Counted from the stretch's first letter, positions 5,090 to 53,025 are shown. The stretch: DNA of 64,000 nt from Elusimicrobia bacterium GWA2_66_18 (GCA_001799675.1 MGTX01000016.1:9876-73875), one strand, 5' to 3'. Numbers and translations are program-made. Notes: generated by a model not told the origin, from the letters alone.

Positions 5090-5124
5090 TTTAGCTAAAA
5101 TGTCGCGTCATTAAGGAGGACTCA

Positions 5125-10998: not shown

Positions 10999-11241
10999 TG
11001 GGTGTCAGGATTCGGCGCAGGGGACTTCGGGTCGCCGACATCGCCTGCGGCGCCGGCCGCCACGCGCTGGCCTTGGCTCGGCGCCTTCAGGTTTCACGAA
11101 ATCCACACTTTCCGCCATTGGACCCATTTTGGGGTAGATCTCCTGTAGCCTTTTGGTCTTCCCCTCAGACCTATTCAGGATCAGGGCGTCCTGCGGTACA
11201 ATGTTCTCGTCTCGGCCATCCGCCGGAATGGAGGCACTCCG

Positions 11242-25126: not shown

Positions 25127-26839
25127 ATGGCCTTGAGCAGCGGTCCTCGTTTGGACGTCTTCGTCGAAGCCGCCCGCATCCTCAGCAGCGTGTGCTGGAT
25201 CGTCTGGATCCCCAGCAGCGCCGTGGTCATCGCCCGTGCCAGCCGCCGTATGTTCAGCCGGCTGTCCCACGCGCAGCGGGTGACGCTGGTCCTAGCGCCG
25301 GTCCCGGTCCTGGCGTTGGCTCGTTGGCTGCCTATGCATGTCTCGATCGACCCCGTCTTCTTATGCCATTGGCTAGAGCCGTGGAAAGGCATGTCCGGAA
25401 GGGTGCTCGTTGATTTGTTGGCCTCCTGGACGGCGAGTCCGGAGTTCACCTCGATCTGGATCGCGCGCGGTTTCTACCTCGCCGTCCCCTTCCTGGCTCT
25501 TGCCGTGTTGGGTTTGGAGGAGGAGCCGTCTCCTGTCGGCCGCGGCGGCGTCTTCATCCTGGCCCTGTTGCTGCTCGGAAACCCGATCATGGTTGTGGGC
25601 AGCATGTCGGTCCGGTACTTCTTCTTCGTGCCGGCGGCCATCGCGGTGATCCTGGTGTCAGGTCGTGAGTGGCTTGCCAAAGGCGGCAACGCGCCTTTCT
25701 GCGCCCTGGCCAGCAGCCTGATCCTCCTCGGCTGGAGCCGTCCGGAGATAGCTCCCGTGGCGGTCCTCTTGACGGGGCTGCTGGCCTGGCAGGCCTGGAG
25801 AGCGCCCCGGCTGATGGACCGCCGCGAGATGGGCGGCCTTCTCGCCACCGGACTGGCGCTGCTGGCCGTGTTCCCCGCGGAGTTGGGATACCTCGTCGCC
25901 CAATCCCGTATTGACTCCATCTCTCTCAAGGGCAACATCCTCGGGCAGCGACCGGTCTGGATGCTGCTGCCGCTCCTGGCCGAGAACGCCTTGCGAAATA
26001 TCCCATCGATTCTGGAGGAGCAGACGCTCATGACCGGCGGGCTCCTGCTCCTGGCTGCGGCTCGCATGGCCCAACTCGCGCGCCGACCCGTCGCAGAGAA
26101 CCCGGAGCAGTGGTGGTCCGCCGCGATTCTAGTCAGCTACCTTATGATCGGCGCGCCGCACTGCGAGGGTCTGGGGGCGGGTGGTGGAGTGGCCAAATAC
26201 GGGCTGGTGATCAACTTGCCCGTCTGGCACCTGGCCGCGGCCTTCCTTAAGGGGCAGGTCGGACGCGGACGCCGTCGGCTCGCCATCTTGACCGCCGCGG
26301 GGAGTCTGGTTCTCTCGACGCAGGGTATCGCGAGTTATTTCGGCGAGGACTCGGAGCGGCGCGAGGAAAACGCGTCCCGGGATCAGCTCTATTGGGAAGC
26401 CATCCCCGCTTTCGCGCGTCATTCCTGCCCGAGGGGCGAACCGCCCGCCTGCGTCGTTGTTGGCGCCGTCGGTGACCCGCGCAGCGAGAGGCCGTTCTCT
26501 CCCTTGATAGAAGACAAGACAGTGGTCGGCATGCTGCTCTCCTCCCACGGTTGCCGGGTCCCGAAGATTGCCGGCGCCGGCCCGGACTCCGAGCCGGCGC
26601 CGTCGGACGACCTTGCCGACCTGCTGTGTGGGCGGAGAGCGGCGTGCGGTCCGACCGGCGCAGTCTTTCCGGCGGATCGGGCGGTCATCGTCCATCACGG
26701 GCCCCAAGACGCCGGATTGCTGGACCGATTCCTGGAGAGGCAAGAGAACTGCGGCTGGCGCCGGAGCGAGAGTTGGGCCTATGCCACGACTTTAGAGCGT
26801 AGGGGCGCGGACAGCGCCTCGCGAAGAGGGAAGCCGTGA
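25127..26839 (+). CDS. Polytopic membrane protein, hypothetical (possibly a glycosyl/lipid-carrier-dependent transferase)
   Basis: More than 10 hydrophobic segments with a large C-terminal soluble part. Followed, with a 4-nt overlap, by sugar-nucleotide and GT2 genes. Confidence 0.5.
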   Translation: MALSSGPRLDVFVEAARILSSVCWIVWIPSSAVVIARASRRMFSRLSHAQRVTLVLAPVPVLALARWLPMHVSIDPVFLCHWLEPWKGMSGRVLVDLLASWTASPEFTSIWIARGFYLAVPFLALAVLGLEEEPSPVGRGGVFILALLLLGNPIMVVGSMSVRYFFFVPAAIAVILVSGREWLAKGGNAPFCALASSLILLGWSRPEIAPVAVLLTGLLAWQAWRAPRLMDRREMGGLLATGLALLAVFPAELGYLVAQSRIDSISLKGNILGQRPVWMLLPLLAENALRNIPSILEEQTLMTGGLLLLAAARMAQLARRPVAENPEQWWSAAILVSYLMIGAPHCEGLGAGGGVAKYGLVINLPVWHLAAAFLKGQVGRGRRRLAILTAAGSLVLSTQGIASYFGEDSERREENASRDQLYWEAIPAFARHSCPRGEPPACVVVGAVGDPRSERPFSPLIEDKTVVGMLLSSHGCRVPKIAGAGPDSEPAPSDDLADLLCGRRAACGPTGAVFPADRAVIVHHGPQDAGLLDRFLERQENCGWRRSESWAYATTLERRGADSASRRGKP

Positions 26840-28092
26840 ACATAGGGTTCTTCGGTCTGGGTAAACTGGGCCTGCCGACCGCTCTCGCCATCGAGTCCCG
26901 CGGCCATCGCGTCATCGGATATGACCCCGCGCCGGCAGTGGGCGAGAGCCTGTCCCGTCGCCGCATCCCCTATCAGGAAGAGGGCGTCGACGCGGCTTTG
27001 GCGCGCACACGCATCGAACTCGCTTTGGAGGACGAGGTCGTGAGTCGATGCGAACTGTTGTTCATCGCCATCCAGACTCCCCATGCTCCCGAGCATGAGG
27101 GGGTGACCCGCATGCTGGAATGCCCCTGCGATTTCGACTACTCGTTCCTCCGCGGCGGGATGACGCGGATCGCTGATGCGATCGAAAGGGCCGGGAGGGT
27201 CCGCATCGTGGTCGTAGTCTCGACGGTCCTGCCCGGGACGATCCGGCGGGAGATGCTGCCGTTGCTCGGGGAGCACGCGCGGCTCTGCTACAATCCGTCC
27301 TTCATCGCCATGGGAACGGTGATGCGGAACTTCCTGAGCCCGGAATTCGTGCTCCTCGGGGCCGACGAGAAGGGCGCGGCGTCCGAGGTCGCAGAGTTCT
27401 ATCGAACGATCCACGATGCTCCGATCCACCGGACCAGCATCGAGAGCGCGGAGCTCATCAAGGTCCTCTATAACACCTTTCTCTCCACCAAGATCGCCTT
27501 CGCCAACACGGCGATGGAGCTCTGCCATAAGATACCGGGCGCGACGGTCGACGACGTGACCGCCGGTCTGTCGCTCGGGACCCAGCGCATCCTTTCGCCC
27601 CGCTACCTCAGCGGCGGAATGGGGGACGGCGGCGGCTGCCATCCGCGCGACAACATCGCGCTGCGGCACCTGGCGCAGCGGCTGAGCCTCTCGTTCGACT
27701 GGTTCGACGCGGTCATGCGGCAGCGGGAGCGTCACACCGAGTGGCTGGCGTCGCTGATCGAGCGGCACGCCGCAGGGCGCGGGGTGTGCATCCTCGGGAA
27801 GGCTTTTAAGGCGGGCTCGAACCTGACCGCGGGCAGCCCGGCGATCCTGTTGCGCAATGTGCTTGTCGAACACGGGCATGAGGTCGTCATGTGGGATCCC
27901 CATGTCGACGCCGGGGAGGCGCCTCCGGCGGGGTCATCCCGCTGCTATTTCGTGGGGACGCGCCATGCCGAGTTCCGGTCCTTTCCGTTCATCAAGGGCT
28001 CGGTGGTCCTCGACCCGTGGCGTTACATCCTGCCGCAGGACGGGGTGGAGGTGATCCCCATAGGCATCGGTCCGTCCGTGGGGACGGCCTAG
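26836..28092 (+). CDS. Nucleotide-sugar 6-dehydrogenase family protein (UDP-glucose/GDP-mannose dehydrogenase-like)
   Basis: N-terminal NAD fold IGFFGLGKLGLPTA and catalytic Cys block GGMGDGGGCHPRD; 418 aa. Confidence 0.7.
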   Translation: MNIGFFGLGKLGLPTALAIESRGHRVIGYDPAPAVGESLSRRRIPYQEEGVDAALARTRIELALEDEVVSRCELLFIAIQTPHAPEHEGVTRMLECPCDFDYSFLRGGMTRIADAIERAGRVRIVVVVSTVLPGTIRREMLPLLGEHARLCYNPSFIAMGTVMRNFLSPEFVLLGADEKGAASEVAEFYRTIHDAPIHRTSIESAELIKVLYNTFLSTKIAFANTAMELCHKIPGATVDDVTAGLSLGTQRILSPRYLSGGMGDGGGCHPRDNIALRHLAQRLSLSFDWFDAVMRQRERHTEWLASLIERHAAGRGVCILGKAFKAGSNLTAGSPAILLRNVLVEHGHEVVMWDPHVDAGEAPPAGSSRCYFVGTRHAEFRSFPFIKGSVVLDPWRYILPQDGVEVIPIGIGPSVGTA

Positions 28093-28109
28093 GCCGTCAG
28101 GCCCCGAAA

Positions 28110-28880
28110 ATGCCCGGGCAACCGAACGGAGTCGCAGTCAACCTGCCGGTCCTCAACGAACGCGCAGCTCTTGAGATCGTGGTGCCCGCGATCATCCGGC
28201 AGCTCTGCGGCCGTCGACACACGCTCTGCGCCGTCGACGGTGGCTCGACGGACGGGACGGTCGAATTCCTGCGCGGCCTGGCTCAGGCCGGGGAGTCGAT
28301 CATCGTGATCGAGCGGCCCCGGCCGGGCCGGGGCTGCCAGCGCGGCGATGCTTCGCGGGCCGGGCTGGCCTGGCTCCTTGACCATACCGACCACGAGATC
28401 TTCGTGGATATCGACGGCGACGATTCTCAGCCTCCGGAGGAACTGGCTTCCGGCATCGCCATCCTCGAGTCGCCGGGCTGCGATGTGGTCATCGCGTCGA
28501 AATATGTTCGGGGTGCGGCCGTAACCGGGAGGCCGGTCGGTCGGCGGCTTGTCAGTCTCTTCTACAACGCGCTGGTCCGCGCGCTGGCAGGGACGGGACT
28601 GCGAGACCACAGCAACACCTACCGCTTCTACACGCGCCGGGCAGCCCGGCTGGCCATGCAGATCGACGCGCAGCACACGGGGCCGCTCTTCATGCTGGAG
28701 ATGCTGTTGCATTGGGTCTGCCAAGGGCTGAGCATCGTGGAGGTCCCGACTCGCTATCGGCCCCGGATCGGGGGGGAATCGAAGGTAGCCCTCGGGGACT
28801 TCGCCCTCGGCCTGTGGGGCGCGTTGCGGCTGGCGCGAAGGGCGCGGCTGCGTGGCTCTTCCATGGCGGGACGCTCCTGA
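28110..28880 (+). CDS. Family 2 glycosyltransferase (dolichyl-phosphate-mannose synthase-like)
   Basis: DGGSTDGT and DIDGDDS motifs. Start taken at ATG 28110 inside track ORF 27891..28880. The 3' end overlaps the convergent radical-SAM gene by ~127 nt. Confidence 0.65.
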   Translation: MPGQPNGVAVNLPVLNERAALEIVVPAIIRQLCGRRHTLCAVDGGSTDGTVEFLRGLAQAGESIIVIERPRPGRGCQRGDASRAGLAWLLDHTDHEIFVDIDGDDSQPPEELASGIAILESPGCDVVIASKYVRGAAVTGRPVGRRLVSLFYNALVRALAGTGLRDHSNTYRFYTRRAARLAMQIDAQHTGPLFMLEMLLHWVCQGLSIVEVPTRYRPRIGGESKVALGDFALGLWGALRLARRARLRGSSMAGRS

Positions 28881-30205
28881 CATTCGGCTGCCCGGCCGGC
28901 AGCGCTCGACCTCCTTCCAGAGTCATCGACCGGCGCCCGCAACGCTCCCAGACCAAAAAGGCGGGCATACGGCGCTGGAACGCCTAGGCAGCGACTGTCA
29001 TAGGGGCAGCGCCTGCAGGCTGGGTGTTTGGCGCGCCCGACCAAGCCGGCCTCCTCAGAGAAGTCCTCGGCGTAGCGCACCCGCTCCTGGGGCAGAGCCC
29101 GCTCCATCGCGTGACGCTGCGGATCATCCAGGAGGCAGGGCGGGAAGCCGCTCTCGCCGCCGAACGACGATACGCGCAGCCCCCACCGCAGGCAACGCTC
29201 GACCCCCCGGCGCAAAAACGGCGCCGCCCGGCCCAAATCAATCGCCCAAGTCGGAACCTTCAGGTGGCCGGCCTCGTTCATCATGGAGAAATAAACCTCC
29301 AGACGTCGATTCTTCGGCAAGCCGGCCCCCAAACCACCCAGGAAATCCGCCAGACCGGGAAGATGGCGGTAATTCCAGGCATTGACGACCACGTTCACCG
29401 TGACATCGAAATCGGCGCCGCCCCCTCGCGCCCTGACCAGTCGAACCAATCCCTCGACGGCGCGCCGATACTGGCCGCTGGTAGCCGTGATCCGATCATA
29501 CACCTGGGGCTTGTGCGAATGAAAAGAGACCAGATAATTGGCGACCCCGAGTTCCGTCAATCCCTTGATAAACCCCGACTTTGAAAGGAGGGCCCCGTTG
29601 GTCTGCAGGCCGATGCGCCGGAACCCCCTCTTGCGCGCAGCCTCTAAAATCCGAGGCAATCTTGGGTCCAGAGTCGGCTCGCCGCCCGAGATCGTCAACT
29701 GGCCGCGGAAATTGGGCTGGCGGGCCAGCGCCTCCAGTTTCCCTTCGATATCGGCCCAATCCGCGCCGCGGCCAGTCAGCGGCACGAAACAAAAAGGGCA
29801 GCGCTGGTTGCACGCCGACGTAACCCTCAACAACGATTGCGGACCTTCCTTGCCGAAATGCTTTTCCGCCAAGGCGGCGTCCGCCATCGCGACGGCGGGT
29901 CGCATGCGAAACGTTTCCACAAACAAAAGGAGCTCGCAAGCAAGCTCCGCCAAGCCCGCTTTCTCCGCGCTCCGCAGACGAGCCCCTGAACGCAACCGCG
30001 TCTGAAACCGGACGGACGGGGTGAGTGATCCGGCGCCATCGACAGAAAATTGCGGACTTAGATAAAAAAGAACTCGGGTCTCCGATGTCCTTCTCACTGA
30101 AAACCGCAGCAATCGCCCCGTCCCTTGTTTGTCGAGAACCCAATCATAACGGCGCAGAACGCCGCGCAGACCGGCAGAAACGATTTTTCTAGAACCCGAC
30201 GACAT
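28754..30205 (-). CDS. Radical SAM enzyme with SPASM/twitch-type Cys-rich C-terminal extension (rSAM-1)
   Basis: CNQRCPFC (CX3CX2C), SGGEPTL GGE motif and C-terminal CRRCPYDSRC. Start placed at the internal Met (MSSGSRK), giving a 17-nt overlap with the upstream gene; the track ORF extends to 30337. Confidence 0.7.
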   Translation of the reverse strand: MSSGSRKIVSAGLRGVLRRYDWVLDKQGTGRLLRFSVRRTSETRVLFYLSPQFSVDGAGSLTPSVRFQTRLRSGARLRSAEKAGLAELACELLLFVETFRMRPAVAMADAALAEKHFGKEGPQSLLRVTSACNQRCPFCFVPLTGRGADWADIEGKLEALARQPNFRGQLTISGGEPTLDPRLPRILEAARKRGFRRIGLQTNGALLSKSGFIKGLTELGVANYLVSFHSHKPQVYDRITATSGQYRRAVEGLVRLVRARGGGADFDVTVNVVVNAWNYRHLPGLADFLGGLGAGLPKNRRLEVYFSMMNEAGHLKVPTWAIDLGRAAPFLRRGVERCLRWGLRVSSFGGESGFPPCLLDDPQRHAMERALPQERVRYAEDFSEEAGLVGRAKHPACRRCPYDSRCLGVPAPYARLFGLGALRAPVDDSGRRSSAAGRAAECQERPAMEEPRSRALRASRNAPHRPRAKSPRATFDSPPIRGR

Positions 30206-32381
30206 TCTGCATATCCTTCCGCCATCTCCACGACGGCGAGGCGGCTTTAAGAGCGGCCACGCGGTCGCGTCGCGCCTCAGCGGTCCTACCGAGGGACTGC
30301 TGGGCATTGGCGCGCGCGGCCAGTACATCAGCCGCAAGATTCGGCCTATCCGGCTTGAACGTAAGCATGCGGTCGTAGCAGGAGATCGCTTCCAAACCGC
30401 GGCCCGATAAGTTCAGTATGGCTCCCAGGCTCAGCCAAGCCGAGATATTATTCCAATCGTACCTGATCGCCTTTCGGAATGCACCTTCCGCCTCGCTTCT
30501 ACGACCGGCGCTATAGAGAGAGATGCCCCAAATCACTGAGAGCTCAGCCTGCTGACGCAGCCACCCAACATGAACGCCGGACGGCTTGCCGGAACGATCT
30601 TCGTAGTAACCCCAGGGAGGCAGCAGATCCGGCGCATGGAGCCTCATATTGAGCGCGGCCCTTTGACTCAGCGGCGGGGGCCAGGAAAGAAGCAGAATCT
30701 CCATTTCGGCGTTCGTTCGGAGCACGGCAGCTCTGTTCAACTCACGCGTGCCGGCACGACCGGGACGCTGGACATCATTTCCTTCGAGACGGCGCCATTT
30801 TTCGAGTTGTTGACGGGCTTGCTTAACCTGATCCTTGGACAAATGGCACAAGATCGCCACGCGAAGCATTTCGTCCGGCCGCACGATCGCGGCCGGCTCC
30901 GGGAAGATGTCGGACTCCCGGCAATCCGCGCTATTGATTGCGTTGGCGGACGCAAGCAGCAAGGCCGCGCCGCGATTCCCGGGATCGAGCGCGACGCAAC
31001 GCCGCAAGGCCGTCGCCGCGTCGCGCGGGTTGTTTTGAGAAAGCAGATTCCGCCCCTGGTAACCCCATAACCACGACTCCGTCGGATGCAGGCGCAGCTC
31101 GCGCGCGAGAGCATCGGGAGCGGATGCGCGCGCCGGAAAAAGAGCGCAAAGCGCCAGGGCGAGAGAAACGACGACAACGACCGGCCCGCCGAACATGACG
31201 AACCATCTTCTCGGCCACAGAGAGCACGCCCCCGCGGGAGAGAATTTAATCAAGCCCGCCGCGGGAAGAACAGCCAGGACGGGCAAGATCGGAAATAGAT
31301 ATCTTCGCTCGATCGGGATGAGGAAATGCATGCCGCAGTAATAGGCCGCCAAACCCAGCAGAGAGCGCACAACCGGATCGCGCCAGCCGAGAGCCGCTCC
31401 GACGATCGTCGACGCAAACAGAATCGGAGACCACAACAGGACATGATGAATTCTCTTAAGAACGGAATGGAGATACCTCAGGGGATGCGCAAGCACCCAT
31501 ACGACGGCCGCCCGCAACGGCGCATCTTCCGAAGTGGCCCCGATGAGAGATCTCGCGTCCTCCAACACGGGCCCCGAGACCACCCCGGCCGCGCCGGCCA
31601 TGATGTTCGCATCCGCGCGTTTATTCTCCAGGAAAAGGAAATGATCTTGAACCCGGGAATTCAGATAGCCCCAAGGGAAGAGAACGATGAAAGGAATCCC
31701 CATGAGCAGCGCCGCCGTTCGAACCGCCTTCCGCCGCTCTTTGGCGCGAAGCATCTCCCATCCGGCGCACAAAGCCGGGTAAAAGAGGAGCGGGGAGAGC
31801 GTCGCCAGACTTATTCCCATCGACAATCCAAGGGCTTGGGTCGCCGTCCGGTTTTCGGTTTTAGCTCTCCAAGCCGCCGCAAATCCCACAAGGGCGATCG
31901 TCGCTTGGTAGAACCATCGATCCCCGAAAAAACCTTCCCAGGAACCCCCGAAAGAACTCGCAAAGAAACAATAGGCGCCCACGGCAAAGACTCCGCCAAG
32001 CCCTCCGGCCACGAAACGTCCCATGCCCGCGACGAGCGCGACCGTCAGGCCCAAAGCCGCCGCGGGAAACGCCAGTCCGCCTCTGCCTCGGTTTGGATGG
32101 CAGACCAACGCGTTGGATACGCTGTACGCGGGCATGCTCCATGAAAGCCGACGGTGCGGCAACCCATGAAGCAGGGCTTCCCCGGCCTCGACGTTTGCGT
32201 CATGGTCCTCCGCGCAATAAGCATCGCGCGAATAGGACGCCGCCGCATCCTTCAACACCATCGACAAACGAACGATGCCGAATGCAGCCGCGGCGATGAA
32301 TACGACCGCGACCCAACGATGGCCGCTCCTCGAATCGGAAACAGCCTGGATGGGCAGCCTCATGATCGACCCGCCATCCAT
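30189..32381 (-). CDS. Polytopic membrane protein with C-terminal TPR repeats
   Basis: About 12 TM helices in the first 420 aa, then TPR-like repeats. Resembles PMT/ArnT-type membrane enzymes fused to TPR. Confidence 0.55.
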   Translation of the reverse strand: MDGGSIMRLPIQAVSDSRSGHRWVAVVFIAAAAFGIVRLSMVLKDAAASYSRDAYCAEDHDANVEAGEALLHGLPHRRLSWSMPAYSVSNALVCHPNRGRGGLAFPAAALGLTVALVAGMGRFVAGGLGGVFAVGAYCFFASSFGGSWEGFFGDRWFYQATIALVGFAAAWRAKTENRTATQALGLSMGISLATLSPLLFYPALCAGWEMLRAKERRKAVRTAALLMGIPFIVLFPWGYLNSRVQDHFLFLENKRADANIMAGAAGVVSGPVLEDARSLIGATSEDAPLRAAVVWVLAHPLRYLHSVLKRIHHVLLWSPILFASTIVGAALGWRDPVVRSLLGLAAYYCGMHFLIPIERRYLFPILPVLAVLPAAGLIKFSPAGACSLWPRRWFVMFGGPVVVVVSLALALCALFPARASAPDALARELRLHPTESWLWGYQGRNLLSQNNPRDAATALRRCVALDPGNRGAALLLASANAINSADCRESDIFPEPAAIVRPDEMLRVAILCHLSKDQVKQARQQLEKWRRLEGNDVQRPGRAGTRELNRAAVLRTNAEMEILLLSWPPPLSQRAALNMRLHAPDLLPPWGYYEDRSGKPSGVHVGWLRQQAELSVIWGISLYSAGRRSEAEGAFRKAIRYDWNNISAWLSLGAILNLSGRGLEAISCYDRMLTFKPDRPNLAADVLAARANAQQSLGRTAEARRDRVAALKAASPSWRWRKDMQNVVGF

Positions 32382-34147
32382 ATCCTCCGCACGTAAGACT
32401 CCGAACGCCTGATGCCCTTGGCCATCTCCAATCCGGCCGTCAGAATTTTCCGCATCTCGGCGGGTCCAAAGGAGGAGCCCCGCGGCAACCCCAACTCGCC
32501 GCCGATAAAGGCAGTCACTTCCCGAGGGATAGCCGAAAAATCGGCCGCCAAGCCCTTCCCGTCGCGAATCAGAGCGCGGTTAAAATACGCCCAGAGGTTG
32601 TCGGGGGCCGACGCGATCACATGGTCAAGGTCCCGTATGCTCTCGTCATGCCGACCCATCACCCGGTAGACCTCGCCCCTCCATGCGCGCGCCTCGAAAT
32701 CCTTCGGGTCCAACTCGACGGCTAGATCGAGGTCCGCGAGCGCCTCATCGCGCCGCCCGAGTTTCCAAAGCGTCGCCCCGCGCCAGCCGTAGATGAAAGT
32801 CTGCGCCCCGAGCGCAACCGCCTCGTCAAGCATCTCCAGGGCCTTCTTGTACTCCCCCAGCCACAGGAATATCTCGCCGTTCCAGGTCAACACCTCCCGT
32901 CGGACGGTCGCGTCGCCGACCTTCCGGGCCCGCTCGAACTCGCGCAAGGCCTGCTCCTTATCGCCCTTGGCCAGGTAGGCCTCGGCCATGCGGCAGCGGA
33001 CCCACCAATGAGAGGGCGCGTGCCTGAGAATCCGCCGGGAGATCGCGATGGCTCCGTCGAAGTCCAGCATGCCGAGCTTGACTAAAATGCAGGACTGGCT
33101 CATCCATGAGTATCGAGGCGAGCCCGAGTCCTCGATGCTCTCATATTCGGCCATCGCCTCCTCGTCGCAGCCGCTGTCTCCAAGGAGGATGGCCCGATAA
33201 TAGGCGAACCAGCGGGAGAATTTTCCACCCTTGCTCGCGGCGCGGATGCGGCGGAGTTCCTCAGCGATGAAGCGATCCTCGACCACGGCCCGGCGGATCT
33301 CCCGCCACCACGGCCACATGAGCTGTCCGGGAGACTGAAAGCCTCCGAGTTGATCGAGCATCGCCTCGCCCAGACGGAAAGCGGCTCGATATTTCCTCGC
33401 GCACATGAGGGCGGAGAATATCTGGGGCCACTCGAGGACGAGCTTATCGGAGTGACCGGCCCGCGCCAGGCAGCCCAACAGCGCCCGTTCTACGGCGGGC
33501 GCGTAGCGCCCGAGCGCGATGAGCTCAAGAAGCGCCTCGATGCGGGAGTTTTCCGCCCCCTCCGCCCCGGCCCCGAACGCCGGGATGAGCGCCTCCTCCG
33601 CCGCCTTGAGCCGGCCCCTTGCGATCAGCACTTCCGTAAGCAGGATGCGAGCGCCCGGCTGCGGGACGACGCTGAGCACGGCGCGCATCGCCGCCTCGAT
33701 GCGATCTAGATTCTCGCCGTTTTGGATCACCCTCTCCACGAAAACGCGCCGGTACATATTAAATTCCATGAGTGCGTACAGACTCTTGCCCGCGTCCTCG
33801 CTGAAACCGCCGCGCAGTATAATGTCGCAGAGGAGATTGAGTTTACCTTCCGCCTGCGCCACCGTTTCCTTCAACACCTCGTAAGCCTCCGCCGAGCGGC
33901 CCGTCTTCTCTAGAAACCGGGAGAGTTCCACTCGCGGCAGCGGCGATGCGGGCTTAACGTCCAGGGCCTTACGGAAAACATTCTCGGCCTGCTCCAAACG
34001 CCCCCGGTTCTCCGCGATGCGCCCCAGCCAGATGAATACCTCCAAGACCGAGGTTCCGGCGGCCGCGGAGCGCCGCAAGGCCAGCGCTGCCTCCTTATGG
34101 CGTCCGGCCAGGACCAGAAGCTCGATCTCCGAAGGATCTCCATTCAT
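32360..34147 (-). CDS. TPR-repeat protein
   Basis: More than 10 tandem TPR units. Start at the second Met (ATG 34147), which gives an ATGA overlap with the upstream rSAM gene. Confidence 0.6.
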   Translation of the reverse strand: MNGDPSEIELLVLAGRHKEAALALRRSAAAGTSVLEVFIWLGRIAENRGRLEQAENVFRKALDVKPASPLPRVELSRFLEKTGRSAEAYEVLKETVAQAEGKLNLLCDIILRGGFSEDAGKSLYALMEFNMYRRVFVERVIQNGENLDRIEAAMRAVLSVVPQPGARILLTEVLIARGRLKAAEEALIPAFGAGAEGAENSRIEALLELIALGRYAPAVERALLGCLARAGHSDKLVLEWPQIFSALMCARKYRAAFRLGEAMLDQLGGFQSPGQLMWPWWREIRRAVVEDRFIAEELRRIRAASKGGKFSRWFAYYRAILLGDSGCDEEAMAEYESIEDSGSPRYSWMSQSCILVKLGMLDFDGAIAISRRILRHAPSHWWVRCRMAEAYLAKGDKEQALREFERARKVGDATVRREVLTWNGEIFLWLGEYKKALEMLDEAVALGAQTFIYGWRGATLWKLGRRDEALADLDLAVELDPKDFEARAWRGEVYRVMGRHDESIRDLDHVIASAPDNLWAYFNRALIRDGKGLAADFSAIPREVTAFIGGELGLPRGSSFGPAEMRKILTAGLEMAKGIRRSESYVRRIWMAGRS

Positions 34148-35208
34148 AATGGCGATAATTCCTCGAGCCCATAGAGATCCGCGTAAGTTTTCCACACCCC
34201 CTCGCAACGGTTACGGAAACGGCAACGAGCGCATTGCGGCGCGGCCGTCTTGAGGACGTTCTTCTTGACCTCCTGCCAGACGAATCGGTCCTGCATCGGC
34301 CCCTTCTTGGTGGCCATGCTCACATCGTTGGCTGGATCGAAGAGAGCTTCGTCGAGGTATTTCGCCGCCAGGAAGTCGCCCAGGCGGCCCGAGACGCCGG
34401 CCAACGTCAAAGCGCATCGCGGTACGCCGCCGAAGGACAGATGCCGGCCAAGCCTCTTCTCATTGAGCAGCATGATCCGAACGATCTCCGGCATGGCCTC
34501 CTTGAAGGAGGGAGTCCATGCCCGTTCGTTGCGAACGGCGCCTTGGGGCCAGATGTAATTAAAACGAATGTCGTCCAAGCCCAAGTCTCCAAAGAAGGCG
34601 ATGTATTTCTCCATCTCCCTCATAGTCGGGCGGCACAGGACCGGATTGAGCGAGATATTGTCCCTCAGACGCCCGTCACGCCTCAGGGCGAGAAGGTTTT
34701 TGACCGCCATGACCTTGCGGGAAAGATTGCCTGGAACACCCGTGATGAGCCCGTCCTCGACCTCGGGGCGGTGACTGTGGATGGAAAGGGTCGCGCGGGT
34801 GAGGCCGGCCTCGACGAGCCTGCGGCAGAAATCGGCGTCCGAGAGGCGCGTTGCGTTCGTGCAGATGGCGATGCGCTCGTAGCCGATGCCGCGAGCGCAA
34901 GCGATGCTTTCGATAATGTGCGGGTAAACGGTCGGTTCCCCCCCTAAAAAACCGGCGGCGCGGCAGCCCTTCTCGTAAAAGTGGCGGAGCTCCTCGCGAA
35001 CCCTCTCCGGGCTCGCCCAATCCTCCTGCTGATCGCGGTTGGCGCCGCTCATGCAGAATACGCAGAGGTTGTTGCAACGAGTGCCCAGGTGGACCTCGAT
35101 CCTTCGCAACTCGCCGAAAACCGCCGCCCGATTCGCTTTGTCGGAAGGAATCACCGCTCGGTCCCCTCCGGATGGATCAAAAGGGCGACGTCGGAGACGG
35201 ACTTCCAA
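34144..35208 (-). CDS. Radical SAM enzyme with SPASM/twitch-like C-terminus (rSAM-2)
   Basis: LGTRCNNLCVFC (CX3CX2C), FLGGEPT, C-terminal CARCRFRNRCEG; 354 aa. Confidence 0.8.
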   Translation of the reverse strand: MEVRLRRRPFDPSGGDRAVIPSDKANRAAVFGELRRIEVHLGTRCNNLCVFCMSGANRDQQEDWASPERVREELRHFYEKGCRAAGFLGGEPTVYPHIIESIACARGIGYERIAICTNATRLSDADFCRRLVEAGLTRATLSIHSHRPEVEDGLITGVPGNLSRKVMAVKNLLALRRDGRLRDNISLNPVLCRPTMREMEKYIAFFGDLGLDDIRFNYIWPQGAVRNERAWTPSFKEAMPEIVRIMLLNEKRLGRHLSFGGVPRCALTLAGVSGRLGDFLAAKYLDEALFDPANDVSMATKKGPMQDRFVWQEVKKNVLKTAAPQCARCRFRNRCEGVWKTYADLYGLEELSPL

Positions 35209-36848
35209 TGGATGCGCCGCAAGGCCTTCATCCAGCTTCCGGCCGGCAATGTACGCACCTCGTTGGCATAGGGAAACTTGGACTTGGGAACCTTGGTCAT
35301 GTCAAAGAAAAGGCTGATGCTCCGATCAGCGTCAAGCTTCGCGACGGACCGCAAGCATTCCTCGATCGAACTCTTGTTGAGAAAAACAACGACCGGCTCA
35401 TCCTTGCGCAGCAGAGCGTCGCGCAGCCGTTCGACGTCAGCGGCCACGAAAAAAATAAACCGAAACGATTTCGTCTTTGGCTCAAGCATCCAGTCGTAGC
35501 CGCTCAAAGACAGCAAGGTCGTCAGGGCCGAAGCGCCGGCCAGCGGCGTGATCTCGACCCCTCGGGACCGAACCTCGCGCACCAGCCAACCGCCGGGATC
35601 GGAAAAGCATGGGGCGCCGCCGGAAGAGATAACCCCCGCATCTTCTCGACGCAGGACTTCGAAAACCCGTTTTAAGAAGCCCTCATCGCGACGGATCGGG
35701 ATCGTCAGGAACTCTTTGTCGGAGCAATCGAGGCGCAATATCTCGCTCATCTGAGAACAAGCCTCGTCCGCGTCTTCCGCGAAAAAGACGCGAAGGCGGC
35801 GCGCCGCGCGCAGGGTATTGAGCGTCACGTCGCCTCGATCTCCTATGTGCCACGGAATCAGAACCAGCGCGCGTGCTTTTGTCGGAAGCTTGGCGCCCGA
35901 CGAGGCTTGGCTGGTCGGCGGCATAAATTCCCTCCATCCTCTTCTTTCGACATAACCTCTAAAGACGCCCTCGCAGCCGTCCGACCAGGGGCAGACGCGG
36001 CAAGGTTCGCCCTTCATTTTCTCACGACGCACATCGCAATAAATATTCCTCTCAGAACCTTCATTGGAGGCCTGGAAAACGTCCTTATTCAAGCGCGGGC
36101 AGACCGCCCGTGCATGCCGCGGCAGGACGCAGGGGGGCACGTCGATCACGGAATGGTTGATTCCCCGCGTCCGGCCGCGGTCGAGTCCCTTCGAAAGAGG
36201 ATCGGCTATGTCGGCAAAATGAGGAACGATCAGATCGAAGGCGTCCGACATGTAGCCTTGTATCCTGGGGAAATAAAGATTGTGCCGCTGCACTCCTTGG
36301 TCGGCGACGAAATCCATGATGTGGTCAAGGCGCGCGGCCGTTAACGGAGTCATGACCGTATTGATGGAAAACTGACAGGCGGCCTTCTTCTCCTCCATGA
36401 GGCGGAGGACGTTCGCTATGGCGGCGACCTTATTCTTGAAGCTGGCGGGATTACGCGTAATGGCCGCTTCCGCCTCGCTCGAATCGCTATGCAGCGAGAT
36501 CGTCAGTTTATTGATGCCGCTGTCAAGAAACAGGGCCGCCTTCCCATCATTCGCGAAGACCTGCCCATTGGTAACGAGATGAATCATGTGAAAACCCAGG
36601 CCGCGGGCATGCTGGAATATCTTGACGGCATCGGCACGCAGCGTGAATTCCTTGGAACTGATTTCCAAACCGTCGTACCCTTGATGCCGAGACTCGTCAA
36701 GTTTCCGCATGATCTGCCGGGTGGTCAAGACGGGGAGATCTCCCAGAACGTCGCCGCAGAATATGCACTGATTACAACAACGGTTGGAGAGGGAGAGATC
36801 TAGGACCTTCACTGCTGCAATGACTGCGAAGGAAGGGATCTGCTTCAT
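35151..36848 (-). CDS. Fusion protein: radical SAM/SPASM domain plus tetrapyrrole-methylase-superfamily (RsmI/CobA-like) domain
   Basis: Starts at MKQIPSF (ATG 36848..36846), after discarding 114 low-complexity codons of the track ORF. N-terminal CCNQCIFC and SPASM-like CRVCPWSDGCEG. C-terminal ~230 aa with LIPWHIGDRGDVTLNTLRAARRLRVFFAEDADE...SSGGAPCFSDPG...ITPLAGASAL, matching the TP_methylase fold. Confidence 0.7.
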   Translation of the reverse strand: MKQIPSFAVIAAVKVLDLSLSNRCCNQCIFCGDVLGDLPVLTTRQIMRKLDESRHQGYDGLEISSKEFTLRADAVKIFQHARGLGFHMIHLVTNGQVFANDGKAALFLDSGINKLTISLHSDSSEAEAAITRNPASFKNKVAAIANVLRLMEEKKAACQFSINTVMTPLTAARLDHIMDFVADQGVQRHNLYFPRIQGYMSDAFDLIVPHFADIADPLSKGLDRGRTRGINHSVIDVPPCVLPRHARAVCPRLNKDVFQASNEGSERNIYCDVRREKMKGEPCRVCPWSDGCEGVFRGYVERRGWREFMPPTSQASSGAKLPTKARALVLIPWHIGDRGDVTLNTLRAARRLRVFFAEDADEACSQMSEILRLDCSDKEFLTIPIRRDEGFLKRVFEVLRREDAGVISSGGAPCFSDPGGWLVREVRSRGVEITPLAGASALTTLLSLSGYDWMLEPKTKSFRFIFFVAADVERLRDALLRKDEPVVVFLNKSSIEECLRSVAKLDADRSISLFFDMTKVPKSKFPYANEVRTLPAGSWMKALRRIHWKSVSDVALLIHPEGTER

Positions 36849-36864: not shown

Positions 36865-38142
36865 CTATTCAATTGAGCCACGCCACCTTCGGCACGCGGA
36901 CAGTTCGCCGGCCATTCGGTCCACGAAAGCCAGGAATCCGTTGAAGCCCAGGAAGGGCCTCTCATAGAGGGCGTGCTGGCGGTAGCTGGGGAATCCGAAC
37001 TCCAGGGTCGCGGCCGCCGTCGACAGGCCATCCTGCTCGTGCCAGGAGGAGACGAAGAGGTCCAGGGACGATTGAAGCAGCCGGGACACTTCCTCCGACT
37101 GAGTGAACGGCTCGTAAAGGACGACGCCGTCCTCGCGCACCCCGCCGTGAGCCCGTCGACCCCGTACGATTGTGCCGGCAACCGAAACACCGAGGTCCTC
37201 GGCGATGTCGAGAAAACCGTCCGCCAGGTAAGGATCGCCCATGAAGGCCATCCGCCGGTGAAGGAAGAGATGAGGCACGATCTTCTGCAGGCGCGGCATC
37301 AGGCGAGACAGCTCTTGGTCGATGAAGTCCTCCGCCTGCGCCGAGCGTCCCGTCGCCTCGGCCACGGCGCGCAGGAATCCGAGCGTCTTAGGGATGCCGA
37401 AGGGAAGTTCGGCCTCGACGAGCCGCGCGCCGGTCGTCTGAGCCAGACGCCGCGCGGCGGCGCGGCCGTACGGTAAAGAGACGATGACCTCGGCCTGCGA
37501 GGCTTTCTTGAGGTCGGCGGCGTTCCTGCCTTCGAGCCAAATCGAGGCCGTCTTCAGTCCCAGAGCCCCCAACAGCCGTCGGATCTCGACGAGGTTGGCG
37601 GCATGGTCGCCCTCGTTGCGATCCATGAAATAGCCGACGACGGCGGCGCAGCCGGAGCGGCGGCTTCCTTGCGCGACTCCCAGCCCGCGGGCAAGGCTGT
37701 TCAACGTCTGCGCGTAGCCGTCAAGCCAGTCTCCGACCAGCGAGTCCGGCGGGATGTCGATGGCCGGCTTCCTGAGGCGCCCGCCGGAGGGGCGGAGCAG
37801 ACGGCCGTAATCGACTCCGGTGATCGAGCACATCGGCAGGGCCGTCACCAGGACGAGACCTGAGTCGTCGATGCCGTCAAGCGTTTTGAGCTGACGCCGG
37901 ATGACGTCGTCGTGCTCCTTGACGACTCCGCGCGAACAAACATTGGTGAAGGCCACGCGGTGACGTCCATTGGAGCGCAAAAGAGTGGAGTTCAAGTCAT
38001 GACGGCCGTGGATAAAATGGGCCTTATAAAGCGTGCAGTCGGGACCGTCGACCAAGACGTACGCGTCTCGAATGGCGTTGACGGCGAGATAAACTCCGAG
38101 AAGGGTAGGGTAATTCATCGGGCGTCCGGAATTGGCGGCCAT
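36865..38142 (-). CDS. Nitrogenase component-1-like protein, NifK/NifN/BchB-like (set A)
   Basis: 425 aa. N-terminal LLGVYLAVNAIRDAYVLVDGPDC block typical of the Oxidored_nitro family. Paralogous to 42368..43651 and 47171..48394. Confidence 0.6.
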   Translation of the reverse strand: MAANSGRPMNYPTLLGVYLAVNAIRDAYVLVDGPDCTLYKAHFIHGRHDLNSTLLRSNGRHRVAFTNVCSRGVVKEHDDVIRRQLKTLDGIDDSGLVLVTALPMCSITGVDYGRLLRPSGGRLRKPAIDIPPDSLVGDWLDGYAQTLNSLARGLGVAQGSRRSGCAAVVGYFMDRNEGDHAANLVEIRRLLGALGLKTASIWLEGRNAADLKKASQAEVIVSLPYGRAAARRLAQTTGARLVEAELPFGIPKTLGFLRAVAEATGRSAQAEDFIDQELSRLMPRLQKIVPHLFLHRRMAFMGDPYLADGFLDIAEDLGVSVAGTIVRGRRAHGGVREDGVVLYEPFTQSEEVSRLLQSSLDLFVSSWHEQDGLSTAAATLEFGFPSYRQHALYERPFLGFNGFLAFVDRMAGELSACRRWRGSIE

Positions 38143-40443
38143 TTAATCCGCTCCCACGTAACGCGCGTAGCGCCGATGAAACGGCCACCGGCAAATCCGG
38201 TTGAGACTCTCGAGCGTGCGCAGCGCCCCCACGGCGCCCATCTCGAAGAGATCGAGCGAGAATTGGGATTTCCCGGCCCGCGCCAGCCTCGGGTCGGACG
38301 CATACTCCGAATAGACCGCCTCGAAACGGCCGCCCGCCAGCAGCGCCTCGAGATGCTCGGGGGTCTTGAAGAACGACAAGTGGGGAGACTCTCGTCCCGC
38401 TTGGCCGTAACACAGAACGTGGACCGCGAACCCCATCTCCCTGAGCAGGCGCAACAGCGGGATTCCCCACATCTGGGACGCGTCGGTCAGCCGTCCCGCG
38501 TGATGAGAGTCCACGACGAAGGCCAAGGCATGGCCGTTGGCCTCCCGCCGAGCGCGGTCCCAATCGCCGGATATCTCCCCGAAGGACTTCTCGAAAGCCG
38601 CGCGGACTTGGCGTTGGCGTCCGAACTCGCCGGCGACTCCCTTGAGCCAGGTCTTCGTCGCCTCCGGGCCGTAGGGCGCGGCGAGTCTCAGAGAACGGAT
38701 CGGCATCGGCGCGAAGAACTCGCGATAGGTCTCTTCGTAGGCGCCGTTCGGGTAGAGGACCTGGACCGGCGCCGCGAGGTAGCTCCGGGCGGCGTCCAAA
38801 TTCAGGAACGGCATCACGCGCGCTCGGACCTCCACGCCGGCCGCCTCCAGCAGGCGCACGACTTCCAGAAGGCTCCGGTTTTCCGGGAAACCCACCAGAT
38901 TGATTGCGCGCCTGCGCCGCCTGACCTTGGCAAAGGAAGGACTGTCGCGCATCTTCTTGAACAACTCAAGCCCCACGTCGGTGCATCCGCCGTTCTCGGC
39001 CGGATTCGAGTAAACGATGGGGACCTTCGTGCGCTCCTGCCAGCGCGCCGCCACCGCCGTCGCGTCGTCGCCGATCACCGTCGGGATGCAGGTCGAATGG
39101 ACGACGATCGCATCCGCACCGTCATGGCTCACCGCTTGGCCGAGGGCCTCGTCGAGCTTGCGGCCCCCGCCGTGGATGACGTCGATGTCCCTCAGGTCCG
39201 TCATGATCTCGCCGCCCGGCTCCTCGCCCGGCTCTTCGCCCGACTCTCCGCCCGGCGCGCAACCGGCATCCTGGCGCGGCCATGGAAACTTAAAGAAGGA
39301 CGGCAGGCTCGCGTCGTAGTAATCCGGAGTGGAGTAGGCGCATTCCAGATCCTGATGCCGGACGTCGATCGTAGCGGCCCTTATCTCCAAATGCCTCTTG
39401 GCGTGACGGCGAGTCTCGAAATCGCAGAAAAAGCGACGCCACTGATCCTCACTCCCCCAGACCTGGGAATTCTGGCCCGGATTGTTGTCCCAAAGAGACG
39501 CCTGCCAGGATAAATCCGCCTCGACATCCGGCCCCCTCTCCGGTCTTTGTTCCCCTGAGCGCCGCTCAACCGGTTGAGGGAGCGACGAAACGGACGGGCG
39601 CTCCGACGGCGCCTGAGGAACGTCGATGAAAGCTCTCCGGGACGACTCATGGAACTGCTCGTCTGTAATAGGAGAGGGGACCTTCGCGGTGGTACGGTCG
39701 AATTTCCACAGTTCCTGCGCCAGCAAACTTACGCGTCGCGACATCTCAGCGTCGGGGGCGTGTTCGACAAGGGTCCGGCGCCGATACTCCGCCTCACGGA
39801 CGGCGGCCTCTCGAGTAAAAAAAGAGAGGACCTTCGTCCCGATCAGCGCCGCCAGGCGCTCGACGGCCTTGATATCGGCCCCCGGGTCGCGGAGATTGGC
39901 GACCAGACCGCAGAGGGCGACGCCGTTGGCGCTGTAATTGCGGATGGCGCGGGCGATATTGTTTGCCGCATAGAGGGCCATGAGCTCTTCGGACGTCACG
40001 ATGACGACCTTGTCGGCAAATCCTTGCCGCAGCGGGGCCGCGAACCCCCCGCAGACGACGTCTCCCAGGACGTCGAAGAGCGCAACGTCATAGCGGTCCT
40101 CCCGCAGGATTCCCGCCCCCTCCAACAGTTCGATCATGCGCGAGATTCCTCTCCCCGCGCAGCCGATGCCTGGTTCCGGCCCCCCCGCCTCGATGCAGTC
40201 GACGCCCAGCCTGCCTCGCACCAGAATCTGGGAAAGATCTGATCCACGCGAGTCCATGAAGGCCGACTGCTCGACGACGGTGCGGATGGGTTTGCCGTCC
40301 GTCAGAGCGACGGTCGTGTCGTGCTTGGGATCGCACCCGACGAGGAGGACCCGCTTCCCCTGCCGGGCATAAACGGCCGCGAGGTTGGCCGACAGCGTGG
40401 ACTTGCCGATGCCGCCCTTGCCGAAGATCGTTATCCGTTGCAT
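38143..40443 (-). CDS. Fusion of NifH/BchL-like ATPase with a NifD/NifE/BchN-like component-1 domain (set A)
   Basis: N-terminal FGKGGIGKST, CDPKHD, GIGCAGRGI (cluster Cys) and DVLGDVVCGGFAAP (cluster Cys). An acidic/Gly-rich linker follows, then a ~420-aa domain with the IVVHSTCIPTVIGDD block paralogous to the standalone NifD-like genes; 766 aa. Confidence 0.8.
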   Translation of the reverse strand: MQRITIFGKGGIGKSTLSANLAAVYARQGKRVLLVGCDPKHDTTVALTDGKPIRTVVEQSAFMDSRGSDLSQILVRGRLGVDCIEAGGPEPGIGCAGRGISRMIELLEGAGILREDRYDVALFDVLGDVVCGGFAAPLRQGFADKVVIVTSEELMALYAANNIARAIRNYSANGVALCGLVANLRDPGADIKAVERLAALIGTKVLSFFTREAAVREAEYRRRTLVEHAPDAEMSRRVSLLAQELWKFDRTTAKVPSPITDEQFHESSRRAFIDVPQAPSERPSVSSLPQPVERRSGEQRPERGPDVEADLSWQASLWDNNPGQNSQVWGSEDQWRRFFCDFETRRHAKRHLEIRAATIDVRHQDLECAYSTPDYYDASLPSFFKFPWPRQDAGCAPGGESGEEPGEEPGGEIMTDLRDIDVIHGGGRKLDEALGQAVSHDGADAIVVHSTCIPTVIGDDATAVAARWQERTKVPIVYSNPAENGGCTDVGLELFKKMRDSPSFAKVRRRRRAINLVGFPENRSLLEVVRLLEAAGVEVRARVMPFLNLDAARSYLAAPVQVLYPNGAYEETYREFFAPMPIRSLRLAAPYGPEATKTWLKGVAGEFGRQRQVRAAFEKSFGEISGDWDRARREANGHALAFVVDSHHAGRLTDASQMWGIPLLRLLREMGFAVHVLCYGQAGRESPHLSFFKTPEHLEALLAGGRFEAVYSEYASDPRLARAGKSQFSLDLFEMGAVGALRTLESLNRICRWPFHRRYARYVGAD

Positions 40444-50260: not shown

Positions 50261-50887
50261 CTAGGCCGCCGGCTCTTTCCTGAAGACCAGGAAGAATCCG
50301 GGAACAGGATATTCGGAGGTTGCGCTCCCGCCTGAAGGGATGGCGAGGTCTTGATAGCGCCCGGAAAACCCGGCGTCAAGAAGCAGCTCGATCGTTTCCT
50401 TCTTGCCGCAGCTGCCGCTTATCAGCCGGTCCTGGTAATAGATGAGACGGCCCCCTGTTCCCAACATCCGCAGTATCTCCCGCGCATAGCGCGATGCGAC
50501 GCCCATGTCCCCTTTAGATTCGAACCTGAGCGAATTGATCATGATGATCAGATCCAGATCGCCGAAGGAATCCATGCCCGTCGCATAATCGCTTCTGGCC
50601 CTTTTCACTCTGATGTTATCGATGTGATTATTCCGGGCATATCTTCTCAGATGCTCCACCCAACGCACACGGCTATCCGTTGCGTGAACAAAACCTTTTT
50701 TTCCAACCAAGCCCGCGATCTTGACCGCGAAATATCCGGCTCCCGCTCCGATATCCGCCACTTTCATGCCCGGCTTCACAGCCATTGTTTTCAATTGGAG
50801 CCTGGCATCGGCAGAGCGATCCCTCACGCGATCCTCAGTCAACTGCCAGCCGGCATAATGGGGTCGGCGCTTAAGCGATTTGAGCAC
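50261..50887 (-). CDS. Class I SAM-dependent methyltransferase
   Basis: Motif I VADIGAGAGYFA; 208 aa; GTG start overlapping the upstream stop by 1 nt. Confidence 0.7.
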   Translation of the reverse strand: MLKSLKRRPHYAGWQLTEDRVRDRSADARLQLKTMAVKPGMKVADIGAGAGYFAVKIAGLVGKKGFVHATDSRVRWVEHLRRYARNNHIDNIRVKRARSDYATGMDSFGDLDLIIMINSLRFESKGDMGVASRYAREILRMLGTGGRLIYYQDRLISGSCGKKETIELLLDAGFSGRYQDLAIPSGGSATSEYPVPGFFLVFRKEPAA

Positions 50888-52935: not shown

Positions 52936-53025
52936 CCCATCTCCGCGGTGTCGCATCCGCCTTCCTGAAAAACGTCCGATCAACGGTCCCCTGCGCCCGT
53001 GAATATTTCTCAGCGCTGCACATGA

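Follow-up and report, generated by a model that had tools for sequence, protein, structure and literature searches.

We describe a gene fusion in a 64,000-nucleotide (nt) stretch of DNA from Elusimicrobia bacterium GWA2_66_18 (GCA_001799675.1, MGTX01000016.1:9876-73875; the whole stretch is called the window, and positions are counted from its first letter). A minus-strand open reading frame (ORF) at 35151..36848, delineated by ORF listing, start context and Pfam, encodes a protein of 565 amino acids (aa) with an HxsC-like radical S-adenosylmethionine (SAM) domain, here named rSAM1, followed by a linker and an RsmI-like class III SAM methyltransferase domain. The gene is located in a nitrogenase-like cluster which, by organism and gene context, is a "Group VI" cluster of groundwater Elusimicrobia. 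Meheust et al. 2020 described such clusters and predicted that they reduce tetrapyrroles; the window cluster has in common with theirs the phylum and the presence of NifH/NifD/NifK paralogs amid many radical-SAM genes (28754-55535), with the genome of GWC2_65_9, which encodes the identical protein, being part of their data set. The cluster is already published; the methylase family is undescribed, and we found no paper on the rSAM1-methylase fusion. Overall, we read the gene as a recent fusion of two neighboring Group VI cluster genes whose products would act in sequence, with a substrate that leans toward a peptide, and we hold this reading with about as much confidence as doubt.

The ORF starts at the ATG at 36848, 16 nt past the stop codon of the upstream NifK-like gene, and ends with the TGA at 35151-35153. 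A longer, GTG-started ORF reaching to 37190 was rejected, because of its overlap with the NifK-like gene and because every public gene call begins at the ATG at 36848. An initial annotation, made from the DNA alone, had placed at 35151-36848 a fusion of a radical-SAM/SPASM domain with a domain of the tetrapyrrole methylase superfamily, and the joining of these two superfamilies is borne out, with Radical_SAM (PF04055) matching residues 19-180 at 48.9 bits (gathering score 29.5, E = 1e-12) and TP_methylase (PF00590) matching residues 329-518 at 44.0 bits (gathering score 27.8, E = 3e-11). The fusion ORF is identical on 11 independently assembled contigs from several samples (ENA, JGI and Logan assemblies), indicating that the fused reading frame is real, and an assembly or frameshift artefact was rejected on this ground. 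The protein is also identical to A2X40_04015, a public protein from the metagenome-assembled genome (MAG) of Elusimicrobia bacterium GWC2_65_9. The GC content of the fusion gene and that of its third codon positions lie below those of its neighbors (0.558/0.68 for the rSAM1 part and 0.596/0.72 for the methylase part, against 0.64-0.65/0.78-0.80 for the adjacent nitrogenase-like genes).

The methyltransferase half (residues 327-565, 35154..35870, minus strand) is placed by sequence comparison and predicted fold on the branch of the class III superfamily that contains the 16S rRNA 2'-O-methylase RsmI, and not on the CobA/CbiF branch. The Gly-rich SAM loops to which the initial annotation drew attention are intact (PWHIG at 332-336, GGAPCFSDPGG at 410-420 and AGASA at 437-441), and AEDAD is a further SAM loop motif of this half. 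Among the methyltransferase models of NCBIfam it matches just the two for RsmI, TIGR00096 (64.6 bits, cut-off 167.9) and PRK14994 (30.8 bits, cut-off 502), with none of the precorrin or uroporphyrinogen methyltransferase models matched at E <= 0.1. Sequence matches in the PDB are RsmI (5HW4, 9PZG), two RsmI-like putative methyltransferases and 3hh1, which was deposited as a tetrapyrrole methylase family protein, and no characterized tetrapyrrole methylase is found among them at E <= 0.01. AlphaFold2 (AF2) models the domain alone with confidence (predicted local distance difference test, pLDDT, 92.4; predicted template modeling score, pTM, 0.88), and Foldseek ranks RsmI first (E = 6e-16), followed by CysG (about 5e-9) and the borosin peptide N-methyltransferases (about 2e-8), so that the C-terminal domain does not have an unrelated fold. 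Furthermore, D417 and A441 align with Asp100 and Ala124 of Escherichia coli RsmI, which are vital to SAM binding (PMC5053481). With RsmI (PDB 5HW4, 9PZG) the domain shares the two-subdomain TP_methylase fold and the motifs IG...D.T, AED, G.P...DPG, G-x-S-A and TK, although the two subdomains of the AF2 model superpose on the crystal structures only separately. RsmI methylates the 2'-OH of C1402 in the 30S subunit. The tetrapyrrole C-methyltransferases (CobA/SUMT, CysG, CbiF, CbiL, NirE) share the superfamily fold and the pattern of SAM-binding loops, but their fold and sequence scores to the window methylase are lower than those of RsmI. The borosin alpha-N-methyltransferases (OphMA, MroM, SonM), which use the TP_methylase fold to methylate ribosomally synthesized and post-translationally modified peptides (RiPPs), are also farther from it than RsmI, and we found no core peptide fused or adjacent to the window methylase, as occurs in borosins. 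Of the "CobA/RsmI-type" label that the domain had first been given, the RsmI part stands and the CobA/CbiF part does not (NCBIfam, PDB sequence and Foldseek comparisons). Because the methylase half belongs to the RsmI branch, the fusion gene gives no specific hint of tetrapyrrole chemistry, of which it had been taken as the strongest sign together with the nitrogenase-like reductases; the Pfam name "tetrapyrrole methylase" is no evidence of such chemistry here, and the gene, not coding for a specifically tetrapyrrole-type methylase, does not strengthen the published tetrapyrrole hypothesis.

It is scarcely credible that the C-terminal half is a housekeeping RsmI that lies here by coincidence, or that the ORF is a chimeric misassembly. 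Some sources do annotate family members as RsmI, and the best NCBIfam and PDB matches are RsmI proteins, but the TIGR00096 score stays well short of its cut-off, and neither the window protein nor any other family member has the RsmI_C helix-turn-helix domain (PF23016), which several of the true RsmI matches do carry (P0049, P0050, P0055, P0057 and P0173). The identity of the window domain to true RsmI is about 20 to 24% in the alignment and about 30% over the best local alignments. In addition, the methylase lies within radical-SAM/nitrogenase-like operons in nearly all of the roughly 30 loci whose flanks are long enough, frequently with stop and start codons that overlap, and it is sometimes fused to radical-SAM enzymes, a setting in which the family differs from RsmI. 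The identical ORF in 11 assemblies argues against misassembly.

We show that the methylase, judged from profile searches and alignments, represents a previously undescribed family of RsmI-like class III SAM methyltransferases in which the SAM-binding residues are kept. A HMMER search over 1.84 billion representatives returned about 25 sequences at E <= 1e-28, followed by a gap to generic RsmI proteins at <=79 bits. Members are about 245 aa long and have their own invariant residues (PWHIG, PCF, GGW and several Trp) as well as two short insertions relative to RsmI. They are found mostly in Elusimicrobia, with a few in MAGs of Deltaproteobacteria/Myxococcales. The family is basic, with a median isoelectric point of 9.2, which does not discriminate between RNA, acidic tetrapyrroles and peptides as substrates.

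The radical-SAM half comprises residues 1-308 (35925..36848, minus strand), with the Pfam core covering residues 19-180 (nt 36309-36794). The CxxxCxxC motif for the SAM-cleaving [4Fe-4S] cluster, read from the sequence as C24/C28/C31 (36756..36779, minus strand), is kept in all paralogs. In place of the GGE(P) SAM-binding motif we find SSKEF at residues 64-68 (36645..36659, minus strand), a degenerate GGE that had been pointed out in the initial annotation; S(S/A)KEF is present in all rSAM1 orthologs compared (8/8), while the paralogs rSAM2 and rSAM3 retain GGEP. The GGE motif contacts the methionine moiety of SAM. Since the substitution is conserved in all eight orthologs, with the Glu retained, it is probably functional. 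The SPASM domain is not borne out, since PF13186 has no match in the fusion protein at E <= 0.1 and only a C-terminal Cys motif (C240...C283-x2-C286-x5-C292; 35973..36137, minus strand) is present, whose four Cys are common to all HxsC-like paralogs of these clusters. The SPASM domain has a seven-Cys motif, CX9-15GX4C...CX2CX5CX3C...C, and binds two auxiliary clusters. Four conserved Cys suffice for one cluster, and the motif is a probable twitch-like single auxiliary Fe-S site, not a full SPASM domain; the low AF2 confidence at this motif is what would be expected were the stretch to fold around a metal cluster, which the model does not include.

HxsC/HxsC4 is the best family match of rSAM1 as well as of all four other radical-SAM paralogs of the cluster. 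For rSAM1, NCBIfam ranks HxsC4 first (NF038332; 94.9 bits over residues 18-310, far under the cut-off of 500), followed by MoaA, HxsC and PqqE, with NirJ and AhbD weaker (E = 1e-8 to 1e-9); the HxsC model TIGR03977 scores 48.9 bits, under its cut-off of 267.9. The HxsC/HxsC4 maturases resemble rSAM1 in size and in the C-terminal Cys pattern but differ from it in that rSAM1 has SSKEF for GGE, is fused to a methyltransferase and has nitrogenase-like neighbors, with the latter two not known for His-Xaa-Ser (HXS) systems. Stand-alone orthologs are 311 to 319 aa long (P0003-P0007) or 416 aa (P0008) and 52 to 70% identical to rSAM1, and they usually lie elsewhere in the cluster, after a NifDK-like pair and apart from the methylase. 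No B12-binding or HemN family is matched by the fusion protein in Pfam or NCBIfam. Class B radical-SAM methylases are marked by an N-terminal B12-binding domain and those of class C by a HemN-like core and a HemN_C domain. Without either, the HxsC/MoaA-like rSAM1 half does not belong to a known radical methylase class, which leaves the earlier idea of coupled radical and polar methylation without a basis. A known anti-phage system was considered and rejected, with PADLOC giving only generic radical-SAM similarity at the level of viperin.

The AF2 barrel of rSAM1 is confident and has BlsE, viperin, MoaA and SkfB as its nearest PDB folds, which bears on a second class of substrate. In this alternative, which we consider decidedly improbable, the substrate would be a nucleotide- or sugar-linked small molecule, with the RsmI-like domain O-methylating a ribose or sugar hydroxyl and the radical-SAM domain acting on the same nucleoside or nucleoside diphosphate sugar, in the manner of BlsE, DesII, viperin or MoaA. 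The closest characterized relative of the methylase is a ribose 2'-O-methyltransferase, the best folds BlsE, viperin, MoaA and DesII all act on nucleotide-linked substrates, and sugar-nucleotide and glycosyltransferase genes flank the loci L010 and L014 as well as the window cluster (26836-28880). These fold matches, however, reflect the generic core of a small radical-SAM barrel, and the peptide maturases SkfB and SuiB score similarly; the sugar genes are encoded on the other strand or lack conservation between loci, and the tetratricopeptide-repeat (TPR) and Sel1-repeat proteins and the Hxs genes of these clusters are left unexplained.

With respect to its origin, comparison with related loci shows the fusion to be a recent, single-lineage event, in which an upstream rSAM1 lost its stop codon and came to read into the native start of the methylase, M309. 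The junction (35871..35935, minus strand) holds GGAGGG at 35930-35935, a 5-nt spacer, the ATG of M309 at 35922-35924 and the linker of residues 309-326, for which disorder is predicted (AF2 pLDDT < 50 at residues 310-322). In L003 a stand-alone methylase is 85% identical to that of the window, with 92% DNA identity over the NifH-NifD and NifK-like genes up to the ATG; 36 to 39 nt follow where the window holds the 936-nt rSAM1 segment, after which the DNA is again 88% identical. These 36 to 39 nt have no clear homology, so that insertion and deletion of the rSAM1 segment are not distinguished. The stand-alone methylase of L013 (86% identical) starts at a Met homologous to M309 and has in-frame stops and a different gene upstream, while that of L005 (79% identical) is preceded by a separate, unrelated radical-SAM gene of 421 aa. 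A junction-spanning query of a 5.8-billion-sequence collection recovered no other protein that covers both sides. The fusion was likewise absent from 49 word-index matches, 150 best representatives and 23 species-level loci, although the protein searches did not return the window's own protein and their completeness is uncertain. The stand-alone methylases of L003 and L013, the separate radical-SAM gene of L005 and the lack of any other junction-spanning protein are the grounds on which we consider the fusion recent and confined to one lineage. The literature held nothing relevant on fusions of tetrapyrrole methylases with radical-SAM enzymes and no paper describing such a fusion, which agrees with the initial view that the domain combination is an unfamiliar one. 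The architecture is real and rare, but a designed bifunctional enzyme is not indicated, given that the closest relatives have a stand-alone methylase. With its strong GGAGGG Shine-Dalgarno sequence, the methylase could also be translated separately from M309, as a product of about 257 aa.

To place the methylase in its genomic context, we compared 23 species-level genomes, 20 from Elusimicrobia and three from Deltaproteobacteria/Myxococcales MAGs. The usual order in these loci is NifH-NifD fusion, NifK-like gene, methylase, rSAM2 and rSAM3, with the NifH-NifD fusion and NifK-like unit preceding the methylase in most related loci. An rSAM2 ortholog (60 to 73% identical) lies downstream of the methylase in 16/23 loci, mostly directly and with one gene between them in L016, L017, L019 and L020, and an rSAM3 ortholog lies farther downstream in 14/23. 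Upstream sequence of 5 kb or more is available for 15 loci, 13 of which carry NifH or NifDK-like genes no farther than 10 kb upstream. In every locus with neighbors listed, the methylase has a radical-SAM gene right beside it or fused to it, and stop and start codons often overlap. Two further fusions involve the same partners. P0062 (560 aa, on two contigs) joins a methylase to an rSAM3 ortholog, in a domain order that is the reverse of that in the window protein. It belongs to a cluster (L014/L015) with two methylase copies (4718-5458 and 10001-11683), one standing alone after NifHD/NifK and the other being P0062. P0002 (635 aa, from a Logan contig) joins an rSAM1 ortholog directly to an rSAM2 ortholog, with no methylase between them. 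The three independent fusions (rSAM1-methylase, methylase-rSAM3 and rSAM1-rSAM2) are Rosetta-stone links, and they argue that the methylase and the HxsC-like radical-SAM enzymes share one pathway or form a complex. The L014/L015 locus also encodes a double radical-SAM protein of 662 aa, and the precomputed label "PF00702 HAD" of P0002 looks spurious. One locus, L025 (1-11700, CAYHNV010000008.1), is a mosaic in which the nitrogenase-like and Sel1-radical-SAM genes are 82 to 96% identical to those of the window, whereas the methylase is 47% and rSAM2 71% identical; the far greater divergence of this module suggests that the methylase-rSAM2 module has been swapped between clusters.

A neutral origin of the window fusion is quite unlikely in our judgement. 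It would entail the loss of a stop codon, with the methylase made mainly from its internal start and the two activities no more coupled than in relatives with separate genes. The fusion is confined to one lineage, its junction falls exactly at the native Met with GGAGG and the 5-nt spacer intact, the linker is predicted to be disordered and the AF2 model of the whole protein has a pTM of only 0.56, and rSAM1 orthologs normally lie away from the methylase, all of which would fit such an origin. Against it, 11 assemblies from several samples carry the fused ORF intact and without differences, and the independent methylase-rSAM3 and rSAM1-rSAM2 fusions suggest that these proteins cooperate.

Reading the fusion as a recent joining of probably cooperating cluster genes leaves the question of substrate, for which the related loci offer a connection to the His-Xaa-Ser system. 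In E. coli, HxsB, HxsC and HxsD mature the protein HxsA (PMC13128918). In L001 (1463-6165, MGUL01000186.1, Elusimicrobia RBG_16_66_12) we observe a complete His-Xaa-Ser set, its genuine Hxs genes lying directly upstream of HxsC-like radical-SAM genes and NifH, namely HxsD (54.1 bits, cut-off 50), HxsB (522.5 bits, cut-off 370) and an HxsA4 protein (115.6 bits, cut-off 55) with about 30 tandem H-G/A-S repeats ending in ...HGSHGQW, and L002 (5-49) holds the tail of the same HxsA4 repeat protein. In L012 (5443-10819) the methylase is the last gene of an operon and overlaps the preceding gene by its stop/start codons; ahead of it lie, in this order, genes for an HxsD-like protein (40.8 bits, short of the cut-off of 50), for HxsB (496 bits) and for a B12/HxsC-like radical-SAM fusion. 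The pattern is repeated in L026 (6163-10708) and L032 (5440-10708), where HxsB is upstream of the methylase, with an HxsD-like stretch in L032. L012, L026 and L032 are loci of the Deltaproteobacteria/Myxococcales type with NifDK-like genes nearby, and no HxsA repeat gene lies within 10 kb of their operons. Group VI nitrogenase-like clusters are connected to the His-Xaa-Ser system by this co-location in related loci. The Hxs genes beside nitrogenase-like genes in L001 are mentioned neither by Meheust et al. 2020 nor in a July 2026 Chem Rev review (PMC13474568), and a literature search combining nitrogenase-like proteins, radical SAM and RiPPs returned nothing relevant.

We take a peptide or protein as the leading guess for the substrate because of the Hxs genes in related loci, the TPR and Sel1 proteins of the cluster and the borosin peptide methylators OphMA and SonM, TP_methylase-fold enzymes that appear among the fold matches of the methylase. 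Under this reading, both halves of the fusion would act successively on the same pathway intermediate, with the radical-SAM domain abstracting a hydrogen atom to modify the substrate and the methyltransferase transferring the SAM methyl group to an O or N atom by ordinary polar chemistry, as opposed to tetrapyrrole C-methylation; the methyltransferase may in addition be produced on its own from the internal start. The weakest step is the substrate itself, which would be a peptide or protein handled by Hxs-type maturation, with the ATP-driven nitrogenase-like reductases supplying a difficult reduction. The proposal that the conserved module (NifH-NifD fusion, NifK-like protein, methylase and HxsC-like radical-SAM enzymes) matures peptides or proteins as a machine akin to the His-Xaa-Ser system is tentative, and we would sooner expect it to fail than to hold.

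Several observations weigh against a peptide and against the fusion being functional. Neither the 64-kb window nor any methylase locus yielded an HxS-repeat or His-rich precursor in searches with HxS-repeat regular expressions, for His-rich windows and with Tandem Repeats Finder. The window has no HxsA, HxsB or HxsD, its HxsC-type scores are far under the cut-offs, and the HxsA-bearing loci L001 and L002 have no methylase. Related clusters contain HemN-like and B12-binding radical-SAM genes, and nitrogenase-like groups IV-B and V act on tetrapyrroles (Meheust et al. 2020; PMC13474568), which keeps the published tetrapyrrole hypothesis alive. A nucleotide-type substrate is conceivable by analogy, with the nearest characterized relative of the methylase acting on RNA ribose and the family being basic, and a fusion that is confined to one lineage and keeps an internal start could be without functional effect.

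Tetrapyrrole tailoring is in our view unlikely. It would have the methylase C-methylate a porphyrinoid that the radical-SAM enzyme rearranges or decarboxylates and that the nitrogenase-like reductases then reduce to a new cofactor. In line with this, it is the published prediction for the cluster (Meheust et al. 2020; PMC13474568), the neighboring nitrogenase-like proteins resemble reductases of the DPOR/CfbCD type, related clusters have the HemN-like and B12-binding genes just mentioned, and rSAM1 matches NirJ, AhbD and AhbC weakly. The methylase, however, is nearer to RsmI than to any tetrapyrrole methylase in every test, with no precorrin or uroporphyrinogen model matched, and the NirJ/AhbD matches (E = 1e-8 to 1e-9) are weaker than those to MoaA and HxsC. 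Moreover, Group IV nitrogenase-like enzymes also use non-tetrapyrroles such as methylthio-alkanes and isethionate (PMC13474568), and Meheust et al. 2020 found the capacity to make uroporphyrinogen III in only five of the genomes that carry these nifH genes. The review lists the function of Group VI as unknown and draws on gene context for its tetrapyrrole proposal (PMC13474568), and the text and supplements of Meheust et al. 2020 mention no TP_methylase/RsmI-like gene, no such fusion and no Hxs genes.

The analysis provides three handles on Group VI clusters: a marker methyltransferase family, three independent fusions, and the co-location with HxsA, HxsB and HxsD, the last of which suggests a testable peptide or protein substrate. 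If the peptide reading is true, Group VI would provide the first case of nitrogenase homologs that reduce a ribosomal peptide or a peptide-derived product in place of a tetrapyrrole, and peptide methyltransferases would gain a new class in the RsmI-like enzyme, complexed with radical-SAM partners.

In the minus-strand cluster of the window, which spans about 28.7-55.5 kb, NifH-type domains occur three times (once fused to a NifD-like domain), and Oxidored_nitro and radical-SAM domains six times each; a Sel1-repeat region is fused to one of the radical-SAM domains, and another of the six is encoded on the plus strand (54645-55535). The cluster also has two large TPR proteins and a class I methyltransferase. 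Directly upstream of the fusion gene lies the NifK-like gene (36865-38142, minus strand; Oxidored_nitro 135 bits), preceded by the NifH-NifD-like fusion (38143-40443, minus strand; Fer4_NifH 268 bits and Oxidored_nitro 96 bits). In the latter, a 12-nt tandem repeat of 3.7 copies (39213-39256) encodes an acidic linker of the GEEPGEEPGGE type between the NifH-like and NifD-like halves of a 766-aa protein. Downstream, the HxsC-like gene rSAM2 (34144..35154, minus strand) has a GTG start that overlaps the stop codon of the fusion (GTGA). The two large TPR-repeat proteins (30189..34207, minus strand; Pfam TPR families) lie between rSAM2 and rSAM3, an arrangement also seen in L003. The HxsC-like gene rSAM3 (28754..30337, minus strand) is the third conserved member of the module, and its ortholog is the one fused to the methylase in P0062.

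At the upstream end of the cluster, the class I methyltransferase (50261-50887, minus strand) shows weak similarity to protein-isoaspartate methyltransferases and to methyltransferases of the lanthipeptide-associated FxLD system. Beyond it lie genes for two large proteins of 698 and 505 aa (50887-52983 and 53026-54543, minus strand), for which Pfam, NCBIfam and PADLOC gave no match. At the far edge, where GC content is lower, at about 58% (54-56 kb), the plus-strand ORF at 54645-55535 encodes an HxsC-like radical-SAM protein of 296 aa with CxxxCxxC and Cx2Cx5C motifs.

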